A stretch of DNA of 63,974 nucleotides, the filler included. It is 8 parts of 8 records of this genome, joined end to end, with 100 filler letters (N's around TTAATTAATTAA, not from the genome) between each part and the next. Parts side by side here need not be neighbours in the genome. Positions count along the whole stretch, not along the records: positions 58,975 to 63,974 come from SRR31147125_86529; 7 more parts are not named here. One strand, 5' to 3'. The position numbers were made by a program, and so were the translations under genes. Positions 5,080-63,974 of the stretch are shown here, one piece after another (position 1 is the first letter of the stretch; each line of letters opens with the position of its first letter). Under the pieces are notes generated by a model that searched no databases, had not been told where the DNA came from, and saw nothing but the letters and a program-made list of their open reading frames with translations.

Positions 5080-5179
5080 NNNNNNNNNNNNNNNNNNNNN
5101 NNNNNNNNNNNNNNNNNNNNNNNTTAATTAATTAANNNNNNNNNNNNNNNNNNNNNNNNNNNNNNNNNNNNNNNNNNNN
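5080..5179. other. Artificial contig spacer 1
   Basis: 44 N + TTAATTAATTAA (stops in all six frames) + 44 N. Confidence 0.98.
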
Positions 5180-10803: not shown

Positions 10804-10903
10804 NNNNNNNNNNNNNNNNNNNNNNNNNNNNNNNNNNNNNNNNNNNNTTAATTAATTAANNNNNNNNNNNNNNNNNNNNNNNNNNNNNNNNNNNNNNNNN
10901 NNN
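10804..10903. other. Artificial contig spacer 2
   Basis: Same 100-nt N/TTAATTAATTAA linker. Confidence 0.98.
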
Positions 10904-15005: not shown

Positions 15006-16273
15006 TCATACCGGATTTGAAACAGTTGAATATTCCAGGGAGCCATTACCCGTTTTGGCATCTGCTTTCTTTAACAAATAGGCAAACAACATACCGGCGA
15101 ATCCAAGGATTGAAAATATCCACATTCCTAATTTATAGCCACCACTGATATCATTGGAAAATCCGATCAACAGGTTAAAACCAGCCAGGCCAATATTTTG
15201 AATCATTGTCATTAATCCATAGGCTGTTCCAAGCCGTTCCTGCTCCACAATAAGCGCAACAGATGGCCACATGGCAGCCGGGACCAGAGAAAAGGCGATT
15301 CCCATCATAACCATGGATACGAGAGGATGAAATGGCGTATAGATAAGCATCAAATAAACGGGGATCAATAAAATGGACCCAAACATCATCAGTGTTGCAC
15401 GTCTGCCAACTTTATCCACTAACAGACCAAACAAAGGTGTTCCGATCATCGAGGCAAATGTGATAAAGCTTGAAGTAAAACCTGCCATACTGCGACTTAT
15501 CCCATGATGTTCCATAAAAAATTTGACGGCAAATGTCTGGAACGGGAATACAGCGGAATAAAAGGTGACGCACAACAGAGTAATATACCAAAAGGATGGA
15601 TTCATTTTAAATATACTTTTCAAACTCACTTTATCGACTTTTTCCGTTTGCCCAAGAGAATATTTTTTTCAGCATTTGCTTCCAGCACAAAATAGATAAT
15701 CACAGCCAAAACAGAAATAATGCCTGCGACGACAGCAATCAGCAGCGGATACTGCCACCTGCTAAATAAAGCTTTTGCCCAGGTAGGCGAATTAAGAGCT
15801 GCAAACGAACCCAGTCGGGCAATTGTTAAATTTAATCCAAAAGCAAACGACAACTCTTTACCCTTGAACCATTTTGCGATCACTGTTGTAATGGCAACAA
15901 TCAAAGACTCGGCACCCAGGCCAAAAACAAGCCGTCCGGTTGCCATTATTAACAGATCACCCTTTAATGCCGTAATGATAGCTCCGGTCATACAAAATGC
16001 GGCAAACATAATCGAGGCTTTTTTCGTACCAATCCGATCGATAAGAATGCCACCGATTAACACCATTATTATATTGGGAATACTATAAATGGCATTTAGT
16101 AATCCGATATTCGCATCAGAAAATTTTAATTGCGCTTTGAGCAAGTCGGCTAGCGGGCTAATGCTATCATAAATATAATAATTACCAAACATTGCAAGGC
16201 TAATAAAAACGAGAACACTCCACCGATACAAAGATGAAGGTTGTTTTTCTAAACGAGTACCCAGGTTGGTCAT
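15006..16273 (-). CDS. MFS transporter, MFSD1-like; frameshift near 15630-15660
   Basis: Two halves of about 6 TM each in consecutive ORFs; GILIDRIG and GLLVDKVGRR MFS loop motifs; N-terminal RWSVLVFISLAMFGNYYIYD. Confidence 0.85.
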
Positions 16274-20210: not shown

Positions 20211-20310
20211 NNNNNNNNNNNNNNNNNNNNNNNNNNNNNNNNNNNNNNNNNNNNTTAATTAATTAANNNNNNNNNNNNNNNNNNNNNNNNNNNNNNNNNN
20301 NNNNNNNNNN
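20211..20310. other. Artificial contig spacer 3
   Basis: Same linker. Confidence 0.98.
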
Positions 20311-25644: not shown

Positions 25645-25744
25645 NNNNNNNNNNNNNNNNNNNNNNNNNNNNNNNNNNNNNNNNNNNNTTAATTAATTAA
25701 NNNNNNNNNNNNNNNNNNNNNNNNNNNNNNNNNNNNNNNNNNNN
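25645..25744. other. Artificial contig spacer 4
   Basis: Same linker. Confidence 0.98.
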
Positions 25745-39916: not shown

Positions 39917-40016
39917 NNNNNNNNNNNNNNNNNNNNNNNNNNNNNNNNNNNNNNNNNNNNTTAATTAATTAANNNNNNNNNNNNNNNNNNNNNNNNNNNN
40001 NNNNNNNNNNNNNNNN
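39917..40016. other. Artificial contig spacer 5
   Basis: Same linker. Confidence 0.98.
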
Positions 40017-47830: not shown

Positions 47831-47930
47831 NNNNNNNNNNNNNNNNNNNNNNNNNNNNNNNNNNNNNNNNNNNNTTAATTAATTAANNNNNNNNNNNNNN
47901 NNNNNNNNNNNNNNNNNNNNNNNNNNNNNN
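47831..47930. other. Artificial contig spacer 6
   Basis: Same linker. Confidence 0.98.
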
Positions 47931-58874: not shown

Positions 58875-58974
58875 NNNNNNNNNNNNNNNNNNNNNNNNNN
58901 NNNNNNNNNNNNNNNNNNTTAATTAATTAANNNNNNNNNNNNNNNNNNNNNNNNNNNNNNNNNNNNNNNNNNNN
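58875..58974. other. Artificial contig spacer 7
   Basis: Same linker. Confidence 0.98.
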
Positions 58975-59477
58975 TTATTTTATGCCGTTTTTGGACAGTA
59001 GTGAAATGAGTTTTTCGTTTTGGTGAAGGATATAAGCGCCGCGATCAATATTCCGCTCCAATATGTCAGATAATAATAGAATTTGAGCCTCCAATGCATT
59101 CGGTGAGTCAATTGTTTTGTTAAGCTTATCCCACGCGGTGTGATGGTAGCTTTTACTATTTCAGCTGATGGTTTAAGCCAAGAAACCTGATTTAAAAGCA
59201 TTTCACCAATATTACAATGTTTTTCAGGGTTAGCTGTTTCAAAACCATTATGAATATCTATTTTCTCTTCTGGAGATAGCGCTCCAATGTCGTGCAGTAA
59301 TGCGGCAACAAATAATTTTTCGATTTTTTCATGCGGAAGTTTTAAATATCTGGCGACTCGCCATGAAATATAAGCGGTTCTCTGTTGATGTCTCGACAAT
59401 ATTGGACTTACCAAATCTAAAGCATCTGACAAAGAAAGGATTAGGTTAACCAGATTAATTGAATTTCTTTTTAGCAT
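58975..59477 (-). CDS. HD domain (HD-GYP-like) protein, N-terminal part; frameshift near 59152; truncated
   Basis: LSDALDL, HQQRTAY and LLHDIG; the alternative frame continues YHHTAWD; AAAGGAG SD. Confidence 0.8.
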
Positions 59478-59855
59478 GATATAAAGCTCCTTTACCAAAA
59501 TCATACTGTTTTGAATCAATTATAATTTTTCAACTATTATATTGAATATCGCCATAAATCGTATTGACGATAAACAGCGCTTAATTTGAAAAAAGAATTG
59601 TTACAAAAGTATAAGAAAATTTATCTTTGCGAGCAGACTAATATTATTTTACAGCAAAATTCTATTTAATGCAAAAAGGTAATTAAAACCAATCAATAAG
59701 GGCTCCAGGTTAACAATAATATTATATTGACTGACCTACTGTGATTTTGAATAGAGAGGAATTGGCAAAAGCAACCTGCGGTTTTCAGATATAGAGATAG
59801 AGCGATAATTTGTTAGCGCATCGTTTATATTTACTATGAAACAGTCCAGAAAAAT

Positions 59856-60065
59856 GACACCCATTTTTATATCATTTTATTCACGCCTCAAATATTCTGC
59901 TGAATGAGAAGGATAAAGCAGATGATTTAAGGGCGTGCTTCATTTATGTCGGCTTATAATTGGTGAGGTTGACGATAGCGGAATAGGCTGCCTTTCACAT
60001 CTTTTAAACAGTCCAATGCTCTAATAAAATGGGTGTCTATATATTCGATATATTCGATATATTCG
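59856..60065. repeat. Inverted-repeat-bounded element with adjacent tandem repeat
   Basis: GACACCCATTTT (59856-59867) and AAAATGGGTGTC (60026-60037) form a perfect 12-bp IR; (ATATATTCG)x3 at 60039-60065. Confidence 0.7.
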
Positions 60066-60366
60066 AAAATGGTGTAGTTTGTCCTAATCTTTCGTTTATC
60101 TAATGCCATGATTCAAGAATAGACCTCATATTCAATTTAAGGAATAACGCCGTAAGCCATGAGTCAACACCGACAGGCAGCGGCTGCCCGGGAATTTTCT
60201 TGACAACGCTATTGGGTGGAAGGAAAATGAAGGTCGGTTTTTTCAGCTATCCGGTTTAATAGAATAATGAAATTATAAAATATTACGTGCTTGCCCTGCC
60301 GCCAAGCAGGTAAAGCTGAGCTTTAGCAGGAATGATACATAAAAAGTTATCAAATAAGGAGACGCC

Positions 60367-60934
60367 ATGAGTAACGAACTGGTGTTGGATTCATTACGTC
60401 GCCGCATGAGGGCCATGCATTCACTGTACGAAGAAGCCACGGCCACCATGACTGTTGAACAAGTCAATCACCGTGAACGTGAAGGCATTCTGCCCATGGC
60501 CTTCAGTTTGTATCACTACATCAATATGCAGGATGCATCGTTCATGATTATCACCGGCCAGGCGCCCATATGTAATGATGAGTGGGTAGAGCGCATCCAG
60601 CCCGCCATTGCCGACCACGGCAAGGAAAAAACAGTGGAGGAGATGCAGTTTCAGCAGATTGGCAATTACGAGGCCTTTATCGAATACATGAATGCGGTGT
60701 TCAAGCGCACTGAGGATTGGCTTGCCCAACTTGCTCCGGCTGAACTTGAACGGGTGGTTATCCCGCGGCCGTTTCCTCCCCAGATCGAAAGCACGTACAG
60801 CGCTCGTGTGGCCGGAGAGGTCGGGCTAACCGTGCTTGATACTGTCGAATGCTGGATACCAGCACGGCCTCAGGCATATGGGGGAAATAGAGCTGTCCCG
60901 CAGTTTTGTCGGCCTGAAGGGGATGACGTCTTAA
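60367..60934 (+). CDS. DinB superfamily protein; frameshift near 60857
   Basis: Helical protein with AFSLYH; repaired C-terminus YQHGLRHMGEIELSRSFVGLKGMTS* supplies the HXXXH motif. Confidence 0.75.
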
Positions 60935-61210
60935 GCCTTATGACATGTCCTGATGCATGAACGTTGGAAAAGGTTGATTTTCAGACAAGGTTGAAAAGCC
61001 GCCTATTGAGTATGAGGCGCCCGGATTAAGATGACAAAACTGTGGGCGCCGGTCTTCGGAACATGCCTTGTCGGCGTTTCCTTGGGATTGCCCCTGTTTT
61101 TACTTATGAGGGAAATACACTTGTCAAAAGAATCAAACACTTAATAACGCACTATAATTCCAATTCATAAAACGGGGGCAAGACCTTCCAATGGGGAAAA
61201 GGAGTCAAGT

Positions 61211-61271
61211 CAAGTCTGCTATTGACCCTGTTCACTATCCAAAGTAACTATATGAGTCAATGGCAGACTTG
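61211..61271. repeat. Inverted repeat pair (REP/REPIN-like)
   Basis: CAAGTCTGCTATTGAC (61211-61226) versus GTCAATGGCAGACTTG (61256-61271): 15 of 16 positions complementary. Confidence 0.7.
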
Positions 61272-61372
61272 CCCTCTTGTCACCACGGCCTTTATTTCTG
61301 ACAAAATGTCTCTATTTGTGCTACGAGTTTGACAACCGGGATGGAAAACGATAGGCGCCCTCCCTCACATGT

Positions 61373-61699
61373 TTAACTTGTTGGGGGTTTATATGCGACT
61401 TCCCCCGCTTTCTTCATCACATCAACCGCCTCCTTGGCGGTTAGAAGGGTTGTCGTCTTAATCGCTGAAATCGCCCCACCGGCAAGAGTGGCCATGGTTA
61501 ATACTTCTACACTATCGAGGTCGGGAACCTCGCATAACAAATATACGGTATTTTCACCGACCGCAAAGTAATACTCTTCCAGACGACCACCAAGGGCCTC
61601 AAATATGGGACGGACAGCCTCTCCACGATCCTGAGGATTCTGCATCATCGGTGCATACGCCTCAGGTTTGATACAAACCTGCAATAGATAGCGTGCCAT
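61373..61699 (-). CDS. GYD domain-containing protein
   Basis: NPQDR.EAV...LGGRL..Y...GE...IKTTTLL; AAAGGAG SD. Confidence 0.85.
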   Translation of the reverse strand: MARYLLQVCIKPEAYAPMMQNPQDRGEAVRPIFEALGGRLEEYYFAVGENTVYLLCEVPDLDSVEVLTMATLAGGAISAIKTTTLLTAKEAVDVMKKAGEVAYKPPTS

Positions 61700-62127
61700 A
61701 CTGAAATCTCCTTTCGCCAATCACCCGGCTCTGCCGGGCGCCTGCCTTTTATTATTTTAGGTGGTTCCGCTGTTTCTGATTAAGTCCTTTCCTTTACTTT
61801 TTCCGCTCCATGACCCACTCGCAATGTGGATCGCCGCGTTGCATGTTTTTGGTAATGGTAATACCAGAACCTGGATTTAGGATATCGACAATCCTGGCGC
61901 CTCATCGTTGGTGTCAGGTTGCCCAATATCCACGTTCACTGTTACACACACATTCGAAGCACTTCGAAAACATCTCCAACACGTGTGGATACAGTCGAAT
62001 CAATTTGCAGGTGACAGGTTACAGAAAGTAACAAGAATTATGCGGCTAGCGACTCGTTTTCAATGTTTCAAGCCTTCTGACCGCACGATTTCCCTGTTGA
62101 ATAGGCTTTGAGTTGGAATGAAGGTAT

Positions 62128-62197
62128 TTGCTTTTTGGGATATTGCTCTAATAATATACCCCTCCGACATTACATGCAAAGTTATCCCAAAAAGCAA
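62128..62197. repeat. Perfect 15-bp inverted repeat
   Basis: TTGCTTTTTGGGATA (62128-62142) / TATCCCAAAAAGCAA (62183-62197). Confidence 0.8.
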
Positions 62198-62207
62198 TCA
62201 TAAGTTT

Positions 62208-62245
62208 AGACATCCATGACAAGTAATATCATGGATGTCTTTTTT
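62208..62245 (+). terminator. Intrinsic terminator with its U-tract on the + strand
   Basis: 12-bp stem AGACATCCATGA / TCATGGATGTCT followed by TTTTT. Confidence 0.7.
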
Positions 62246-62261
62246 ATCATAATGGCTCAAG

Positions 62262-62591
62262 TCAAACGACCTTATCAATTATCCTGCTTTTAGCTTCCGC
62301 CTTGGCGGGTTTTTCAGCAACCGCTTCCTCTCCTTCTTTAACCTGCCCCTTGTCGCCGGCTGATTCGGCTTGTTTGGTTTCCCCGGCTTTTAGGCTGCCA
62401 TCGTCGACCTTTTCCGCTTTTTTCACCAAGTCGACCGAATTTTCATCATGTTGAGCCTGAACCTGGGATTCAACCTGAGCTTGAAAATCCTCCCAACTGA
62501 CCAAATCTTTCGACTTTATTTCCAACCGGGTTAATTCCTGGGAAGCCTGTAACTGCAACTGAGAACCATTACTGACGCCTGAAATATCCAT
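62262..62591 (-). CDS. Hypothetical low-complexity protein
   Basis: 109 aa with GGAGG SD; starts MDISGVS and ends IIDKVV. Confidence 0.7.
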   Translation of the reverse strand: MDISGVSNGSQLQLQASQELTRLEIKSKDLVSWEDFQAQVESQVQAQHDENSVDLVKKAEKVDDGSLKAGETKQAESAGDKGQVKEGEEAVAEKPAKAEAKSRIIDKVV

Positions 62592-62625
62592 AGCTCGCCT
62601 CCAATGTGTAATCTTCCCTATTCCC

Positions 62626-62649
62626 CTATCGGCTTATATTTGGATTTTA
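62626..62649 (-). promoter_or_regulatory. Possible sigma28 (FliA) promoter
   Basis: TAAA-N12-GCCGATAG on the minus strand; good -10, spacing shorter than the canonical 15. Confidence 0.35.
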
Positions 62650-62681
62650 ATAAGTAAAATTTGGACATATTTGGAGGGAAT

Positions 62682-63370
62682 CTAATTTTTACTAACCTGT
62701 CTGATAAGCATTAATCCGCATCCGAACGATTTGGCCGGGCCTATACCGTTGAACAATATACGCCTTAGCTTTTCAGGATTGCTAACGGTAATCCGTCCAA
62801 AATAATCAAGTAATGAAATCCTGATGGCTGCCCCGTTTTTTATTTTTTCGAATGTTTGTTGCCGGTAATATTTCACCCTAATGTCTGATTCATCGAAGAT
62901 AAATCCGTTCTTTTCGGATCTGGCCGCCAGCCAGGCCAGGCCTTCATTACGAATAATTTCTTTTTTGAAGGCGACGGCTGTGCGGAATGATTTCCATTTC
63001 TGCAATTCCACCTTGCATCCATGACAACATCATGGCGATGATATCGACCCTGACTGTCTTTTTTATTGCGCACGGGATTGGCGGTCAGTATAAAATCCAG
63101 AACCTGGCCTTCCCTTAGCGCCGGACTGTAATCCATACATTTAATGTCCCATAACCCGTTATAATTAGTTGGTTTATTTGTTGAGACAGCAATAATTACC
63201 GGGCCGTCCGGTCTGTTTTCGAACCTGTAGATAAAATCCCTTTTATGGTCGATATTATCGTGAAAGAAAGACCAAATTAGCCTGTGAACCTGGTAGGCGT
63301 CGTCTGCGGGCAATTCATTGCCCAGGGCATCCTTAGGCTTTTTTGCAGGTGTGATTTTACTTATAAACAT
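62682..63370 (-). CDS. cas6e: Type I-E CRISPR-associated endoribonuclease Cas6e/Cse3/CasE; frameshift near 63015
   Basis: YQVHRLIW, RDFIYR, GQVLDFILTANP, HRHDVVMDA, LAWL and C-terminal G-loop GIGPAKSFGCGLMLIR. Confidence 0.92.
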
Positions 63371-63470
63371 TAGCCAAAATCCAATTGTCGACTTTAGAAT
63401 AATACGATCAAAGGCATGAGATGCATATTACGCAGGGGATTATTCTATAGTTGGTAAATGGCTCATCATC

Positions 63471-63892
63471 GTTTATGCGGCAAGCGCCGTGATATGGTTG
63501 TATCAAACCTCGAATATACATTTAATTGAACTCCAACCCCGAAAAGAATATCTTCAGCGGCTATAGCTGATAGAATAAAGACAAAAAGAAACGGCCCCCT
63601 GGTAGAAAAGCAATATTCCCTATCCCGAACACCTCCATTTATACTATTTAATGTTTAAATAGAGTAGAGCTGCCTTTGATACAAATATACGAGAAAACAG
63701 CAAATTTGGTCACATGCAAAAACAAGTATTATTAGTCGAACATCTCGTTGGCGGCAGCGCGCACAGGCAGACAAAATCGTCAAATAAAATACGATAAGGG
63801 ACAGGTGTTTTTACACGACTAATCCTTTAATGAATGTCCCTTTTCCTTTTCCCTATCATAGCCGATATTGGCGGGTTTATGCGGCAATCGCC
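63471..63892 (-). repeat. Two copies of an 18-bp direct repeat upstream of cas6e
   Basis: GTTTATGCGGCAAGCGCC (63471-63488) and GTTTATGCGGCAATCGCC (63875-63892): 17 of 18 identical. Confidence 0.65.
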
Positions 63893-63974
63893 TTTCCGCT
63901 TCGCCGTCACTATCAGACCGTGCCTGGTCATGGCTAAAATGCTGATTTTGGATTGACCGGCTGAGTTCAGATGG
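63819..63974 (-). CDS. Possible C-terminal end of an unknown gene entering from beyond the window
   Basis: Open frame PSELSRSIQNQHFSHDQARSDSDGEAERRLPHKPANIGYDREKEKGHSLKD*; no recognisable motif. Confidence 0.3.
   Translation of the reverse strand, partial: PSELSRSIQNQHFSHDQARSDSDGEAERRLPHKPANIGYDREKEKGHSLKD

Follow-up and report, generated by a model that had tools for sequence, protein, structure and literature searches.

The best described relatives of the gene studied here are the Cas6e (CasE, Cse3) proteins of type I-E CRISPR systems, among them T. thermophilus Cse3 (1wj9, 2y8w) and E. coli CasE (4qyz chain K), and their usual surroundings can be read from the loci in which related genes lie. 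Scans with P0001, a 229-aa homologue of the gene in question, gave 124 such loci, 59 in species-representative genomes and 65 on metagenome contigs, all of them at most 45% identical; three of the 124 have no cas6 match in tblastn. Annotation with NCBIfam of 110 ORFs from 15 related loci gives the canonical order cas3-cse1-cse2-cas7-cas5-cas6e-cas1-cas2, and repeats of 29 nt at 61-nt spacing follow in all eight of the related regions examined. Of the 99 loci in which 600 nt or more are visible upstream, 96 carry a cas5e gene within those 600 nt, and of the 58 in which 3.7 kb or more are visible downstream, 55 carry cas1/cas2 within that distance; these neighbour counts include 8-10 self-hits per family, some of the queries having been taken from the same loci. 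The statement in a preliminary description of this DNA that cas6e is normally embedded among Cascade genes agrees with these numbers. The six exceptions are rearranged or are without adaptation genes, and every one of them retains other cas genes in the locus.

Several of the related loci have arrangements of their own. In L109 and L118, cas6e stands ahead of cas7-cas5, and in L028 the block cas6e-cas1-cas2 stands ahead of cas3-cse1-cas7-cas5-cse2. Two Acetobacter loci (L045 and L054) and L047 have Cascade genes with no cas1/cas2 within 3.7 kb, and L045 and L054 have no cas3 match either; the three may be adaptation-less or decaying systems. Three ORFs stand out in an I-E operon of the Planctomycetia (L008: 3600-4439, 7379-8041 and 9448-10011): two extra ones that belong to no NCBIfam family, of which one separates cse1 from cse2 and the other cas6e from cas1, and one for a DnaQ-like DEDD exonuclease after cas1.

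Placements of cas genes outside a standard I-E operon have been described in other settings. A Cas6e-derived Cas6 nuclease works outside the I-E operon in type IV-A3, according to the available part of 10.1101/780106. Isolated cas loci are defined in the accessible text of PMC5294841 as those with at least three cas genes. Viral orphan cas genes are presented as anti-CRISPRs in 10.1101/2023.06.24.545427, the available passages of which concern homologues of Cas3, Cas5 and Cas8b, and the main text of which contains neither “cas6e” nor “I-E”, its 358-gene supplementary table aside. For a solitary cas6e we found no account in the literature searched, as far as the available portions of these sources extend and with the supplementary tables of 10.1101/2023.06.24.545427 aside.

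The gene considered here lies at 62682..63370 on the minus strand of the window, by which we mean the whole stretch of DNA that was analysed (63,974 nt). It is split between two ORFs that overlap: 62873..63370, of 165 aa, corresponds to the N-terminal half of one protein, and 62682..63011, of 109 aa, to the C-terminal half. Both halves match PF08798 (E 3.1e-17 at profile positions 1-115 of 223, and E 2.5e-22 at positions 127-222 of 223, respectively), and each scores above the curated cut-off of 45.2 bits for TIGR01907, the type I-E Cas6e model (64.1 and 61.3 bits). Between them, the two halves cover the Cas6e family profile from end to end (1-115 and 120/127-222). The N-terminal part, in frame A (62967..63370, minus strand), starts with an ATG at 63370 and holds the Y-x-x-H-R motif as AYQVHR, and the C-terminal part, in frame B (62682..62960, minus strand), includes the Gly-rich loop GIGPAKSFGCGLM and ends at the stop codon. 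The likeness to Cas6e/CasE/Cse3 of type I-E therefore extends over the full length of TIGR01907/PF08798 and includes the conserved His and the GxGxxKSxGCGL loop; E. coli CasE is matched by phmmer with E 4.7e-12 over residues 23-223.

In an alignment with E. coli CasE (chain 4qyz_K), the histidine of the AYQVHR motif, His29, falls on His20, and its column contains His in all 89 of the relatives compared as well as in the window's protein. We take this residue, His20 in CasE and His29 here, to be the catalytic one. The Gly-rich loop GIGPAKSFGCGLML is kept at all ten of the positions that are 100% conserved among the 89 relatives. More broadly, these operon-borne Cas6e sequences have 38 columns with a conservation of 80% or more, of which 34 are retained in the protein, and the four departures (L47I, K79M, R96T and F202L) are common to the window, P0001 and a second homologue, P0002. 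The third of these places Thr at the Arg of the conserved F-x-L-R-A-N-P stretch, and it sets the window lineage apart from type I-E Cas6e proteins, as does an identity of at most 45% to any relative of known context. Judged by its sequence, 62682..63370 encodes an endoribonuclease of the type I-E Cas6e family, with the invariant His and the Gly-rich RNA-binding loop, and the preliminary description of a clear Cas6e with Y-x-x-H-R motif and G-loop is upheld by the scores of both halves.

An identity as type IV-A3 Cas6 was considered and rejected. The two have in common, on the available part of 10.1101/780106, that a Cas6e-derived nuclease is found outside an I-E operon, but PADLOC, applied to the intact homologue P0001, matches Cas6e models at 1e-40 and the IV-A3 Cas6 model at only E 1.7e-9, over residues 153-223, i.e., the C-terminal 70 residues, and neither csf nor dinG occurs in the flanks that are visible. 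With the viral orphan genes and isolated loci, as the accessible passages on them describe these, the gene shares the position of a cas homologue off its operon beside a small ORF of no known function. It differs from the viral orphans in that no viral or plasmid hallmark was found around it in the visible 5 kb, and the definition of isolated loci by at least three genes, as worded in the available part of PMC5294841, excludes a single gene.

Whereas a Cas6e is encoded in a single ORF of about 200-240 codons, the frame here is broken, as assembled, by one missing base. Frame A follows P0001 up to ...SPSKK (117 of 140 residues identical), and from KKEIIR onwards the match continues in frame B as far as the end of P0001 (91 of 94 identical, or 97%), with no stop codon; against P0002, frame B is identical at 63 of 94 residues. 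Because the switch of frame occurs between ...SKK and EIIR..., we place the break at a run of six A's on the minus strand (62961..62966; T6 on the plus strand), which is the only homopolymer of five or more within the overlap of the two cas6e ORFs. One extra base at this run restores a single 229-codon frame as in P0001. The indel had earlier been put at about 63015, and the alignment with P0001 moves it by some 50 nt, to 62961-62966.

Breaks of the same kind are found in four other genes of the window. In the second of two Lon genes, C6 has become C5 at about 38575, in the codons for GPPGVGKT (the Walker A motif, or P-loop), as located with the window's intact Lon paralogue. The RtcB gene is broken at about 46150, where a run of C3 has become C4 (located by PDB alignments of both halves), and continuity of motifs places a change of GG to G at about 56740 in a CLC channel gene and one of A4 to A3 at about 6925 in a B12/radical-SAM gene. 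All five of the breaks located in the 64-kb window, including the change of A7 to A6 in cas6e, are thus changes in homopolymer length. Five such breaks in 64 kb are the signature of consensus errors and not of five independent pseudogenes. A gene for an MFS transporter (15006-16273, minus strand) is likewise present as half-size ORFs in different frames (215 and 207 aa), which could reflect a natural split or a one-base error; it was not counted as a further frameshift, as these ORFs, with their overlap of 4 nt, could be separate genes.

These breaks bear on the possibility that cas6e is a relic, i.e., that the rest of an I-E locus has been deleted, that the remaining gene is decaying and that its frameshift is real. 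The broken ORF would fit such a history, as would the lack of cas neighbours on either side and the long stem branch of the lineage (see below). The relic reading leaned on the frameshift, however, and the frameshift is of the homopolymer error type that also breaks Lon, RtcB, CLC and radical-SAM genes, four genes of housekeeping type, in one case within the Lon P-loop. There is moreover no second lesion in cas6e, 34 of 38 conserved positions are kept, conservation of the protein is at its highest behind the break, and P0001 and P0002 have intact reading frames despite divergences from the window of 10% and about 31%. We consider a decaying relic unlikely. The frameshift is likely to be an assembly error in a run of seven A's; and, given the homopolymer breaks elsewhere together with the conserved and stop-free segment behind the break, the gene is probably intact in the organism and would encode a protein of about 229 aa.

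The break could also be a site of programmed -1 ribosomal frameshifting, for the sequence TCA AAA AAG holds the slippery heptamer A_AAA_AAG in frame, and a slip back by one base leads to exactly the ...SKK-EIIR... junction that is seen in P0001. The heptamer arises automatically, however, when one A is deleted from TCA AAA AAA GAA, and both relatives are single-frame proteins. Stimulators of -1 frameshifting typically lie 5-9 nt downstream of the slippery site, whereas the predicted fold puts the site itself within a hairpin loop, and the next GC hairpin is about 20 nt downstream. A programmed frameshift therefore seems to us scarcely credible.

The gene has few close homologues. Two came up in a word-indexed search of 5.8 billion proteins, both uninterrupted: P0001, which is 87% identical over the N-terminal 120 residues, and P0002 (236 aa), which is 69% identical. 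Among 1.84 billion representatives, scanned exhaustively with HMMER, P0001 stands for itself at the 50% level, and the next best sequences after it are 41-45% identical (208 vs 528 bits). A quick maximum-likelihood tree of 92 sequences, in which the row for the window carries X at the three residues at the break, groups the window sequence with P0001 and P0002 in a clade that has full support. The stem branch of this clade is long (0.71 changes per site in the same quick tree), and the clade is nested among operon-borne Cas6e proteins from Methanosarcina, from one genome of the Syntrophobacteraceae and one of an archaeon, and from contigs of sediment metagenomes. By these comparisons, the window's cas6e belongs to a rare lineage of three sequences. 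The long stem branch, together with R96T, could mean a changed role. Complete I-E operons around all close homologues would, by the preliminary description, speak against its reading; such operons are the surroundings of the relatives that are at most 45% identical, and the answer extends to that class only.

The window is a patchwork, a draft or bin in concatenated form that may mix organisms. Seven identical copies of an artificial linker, N44-TTAATTAATTAA-N44 (44 N, TTAATTAATTAA and 44 N; 5080-5179, 10804-10903, 20211-20310, 25645-25744, 39917-40016, 47831-47930 and 58875-58974), split it into eight pieces of 5,000-14,172 nt, and G+C across the eight ranges from 0.40 to 0.54. The cas6e piece is exactly 5,000 nt long (58975-63974) and is bounded downstream of the gene by the last linker, 58875..58974. 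Given this range of G+C, the other seven pieces may stem from a different organism, and their missing cas genes therefore weigh little either way.

Within its own piece, cas6e adjoins genes that are unrelated to CRISPR. These are a fragment with an HD domain (58980..59519), a gene of the DinB family (60367..60960), a gene with a GYD domain (61373..61720) and, 90 nt after cas6e on the same (minus) strand, an ORF for an acidic protein of 109 aa (62262..62591). An AT-rich gap upstream of the DinB-family gene contains three tandem 9-nt units (TCGATATAT-like) at 60036-60066. On the other side of cas6e, 604 nt are visible (63371..63974), consisting of about 450 nt of non-coding DNA followed, at the edge of the piece, by the open-ended tail of a possible ORF (51 aa; 63819..63974, minus strand). 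The sole ORF of at least 40 aa in the interval 63371-63818 is a 42-aa ORF with a TTG start and a poor codon score, in keeping with the roughly 450 nt of upstream non-coding DNA that had been noted before. The 51-aa edge fragment has no Pfam match at E up to 10, and a comparison with longer proteins gave 12 candidates, none at E 0.1 or below. The cas6e leader folds no better than shuffled sequences (z 0.14). Used as a synteny anchor, the GYD neighbour was matched in 20 of 401 genomes of Thermodesulfobacteriota, a phylum that was guessed, with a best identity of 46%, and the eight loci fetched around such matches have no synteny with the cas6e piece.

No other cas gene was found beside cas6e in the window. 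Among the best 40 of 308 matches, a tblastn search with 58 Cas proteins from related I-E loci (Cas3, Cse1, Cse2, Cas7, Cas5, Cas6, Cas1 and Cas2) recovered cas6e as the only cas gene; in the same set of 40, the best match outside cas6e has E 0.01 and lies on another piece, the upstream interval 63371-63974 has no Cas match below E 0.88 and no cas5, and the 3.7 kb downstream of cas6e have no cas1 or cas2. Direct-repeat families of CRISPR type are absent from the 64-kb window, and the I-E repeat pattern of the relatives (GTTCCCC-N7-GGGGATGAACC-like, with a 61-nt period) has no match in it at up to three mismatches. Rfam gave no CRISPR families and nothing else of relevance for the window. Across the 64 kb, no array and no Cascade or adaptation genes were found by these searches. 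The absence of cas genes and of an array from the 3.7 kb downstream, as described earlier, stands on the basis of tblastn and the repeat search, but that stretch ends at an artificial linker and not in native sequence.

The locus thus differs from a complete type I-E locus in that neither a cas5e upstream nor a cas1e/cas2e downstream is in view, nor an array of 29-nt repeats at 61-nt spacing. This arrangement is found in none of the relatives that could be judged (99 upstream and 58 downstream). The local detachment of cas6e is real and uncommon, as seen within the 5,000-nt piece, and the earlier remark that no operon surrounds the gene is borne out locally, with neither a cas5e nor a cas1/cas2 neighbour in that piece.

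The small acidic ORF at 62262..62591 was rightly described as an unrelated small gene downstream. Its product (109 aa, pI 4.7) is hydrophilic and without a known family: there are no matches in Pfam, NCBIfam, PHROGs or PADLOC, and an atlas search gave only unnamed clusters. The ORF has the best codon score within the cas6e piece, and the AF2 model of the protein is poor (pLDDT 59) and largely disordered. It has a single homologue, P0003, which is 90% identical; no homologue from a contig of the size of P0002's (35,518 nt) appeared. P0003 and P0001 were each seen on one contig of 15,147 nt, and they appear to be on the same contig of an independent assembly, an impression that comes from a coincidence of lengths and is no proof. 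If so, the pairing of cas6e with the small ORF is common to the closest relative.

This pairing argues against a misassembly, in which cas6e would have been joined to unrelated DNA and its odd neighbours would be artefacts. The assembly is fragmented and error-prone, and the visible piece ends only 604 nt beyond cas6e, both of which make such a join conceivable. On the other hand, P0001 and P0003 apparently share their 15,147-nt contig, and G+C is alike in cas6e (0.43), the small ORF (0.48) and the flanks (0.41-0.45). We therefore regard a false join as highly unlikely.

The same pairing is relevant to the idea that cas6e has been co-opted as a solo gene and is kept in the absence of Cascade, either to process hairpins other than those of CRISPR or as an anti-CRISPR-like decoy for I-E pre-crRNA or Cascade, perhaps jointly with the small acidic protein. 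In line with this idea, the arrangement is absent from the 99 and 58 judgeable relatives, the lineage is rare (with the next best sequences beyond P0001 at 41-45% identity), the acidic ORF appears to be conserved beside cas6e in the closest relative, and viral orphan cas genes act as anti-CRISPRs according to the available passages of 10.1101/2023.06.24.545427. There is, however, no sign of a mobile element: none of the nine ORFs of the cas6e piece, 5 kb of which are visible, matches PHROGs, and a scan of viral contigs with P0001 found no Cas6e relative. Nor was a repeat-like hairpin found in the window as a candidate substrate. Overall, we rate co-option as improbable. A more specific form of the idea is that the small lineage to which P0001, P0002 and the window's Cas6e belong departed from the I-E operon and is kept as a two-gene unit with the 109-aa acidic protein. 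Independently of Cascade, it would process hairpin RNAs other than those of CRISPR, or would serve as an anti-CRISPR-like decoy, capturing I-E pre-crRNA or preventing Cascade from assembling; to this version we give less credence still.

Two further elements were noticed around the gene pair. A 16-nt motif, TTATGCGGCWAKCGMC, occurs in three exact copies on the plus strand (A, 62038..62053; B, 63473-63488; C, 63877-63892), of which B and C lie upstream of cas6e, while A and B bracket cas6e and the small ORF at a distance of 1,435 nt. The window holds these three exact copies and one match with two mismatches elsewhere, compared to an expectation of 0.26, for a pattern that was defined after the copies had been seen. 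Taken as a motif of 16-18 nt, (G)TTTATGCGGCAAKCGCC, the three copies have the same orientation and are alike over only about 18 nt. None of the 124 related loci contains the motif. A reading as a sigma-54 promoter was rejected by eye on account of a misfit in spacing. The second element is the gap after the small ORF (62030-62255), which folds far better than shuffled sequences (z -3.69) and contains a perfect inverted repeat of 15 bp (62128-62142 / 62183-62197), as well as a hairpin of 12 bp that leads into a T-run on the plus strand (62208-62250). On the predicted fold, this structured gap could be a bidirectional terminator or a small plus-strand RNA.

The reading that we prefer, and hold only tentatively, is that the Cas6e is intact, stands apart from its operon locally and works for an array and a Cascade encoded elsewhere. 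An intact protein of about 229 aa would be made, the frameshift being an error of the assembly only, and the gene would probably share a transcript with the small acidic ORF, starting from a promoter region of its own. By analogy with Cas6e elsewhere, the enzyme would bind the stem-loop of an I-E-type CRISPR repeat within a long precursor RNA, would cut at the 3' base of the stem in a metal-free reaction, and would remain on the 3' handle after cleavage. Since there is no array and there are no Cascade genes alongside, it would have to act in trans, on an array and with effector genes located further upstream or on other contigs.

The main present value of these findings is cautionary. Because the window is pieced together with linkers and contains errors in homopolymers, calls of “orphan” and “frameshifted” made from it are unsafe. 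If the gene is solitary genome-wide and under selection, it would be a rarity, a nuclease for type I crRNA processing that is kept alone, and this, if true, would be a lead to crRNA maturation in trans, or to a co-opted or anti-CRISPR role of Cas6e.
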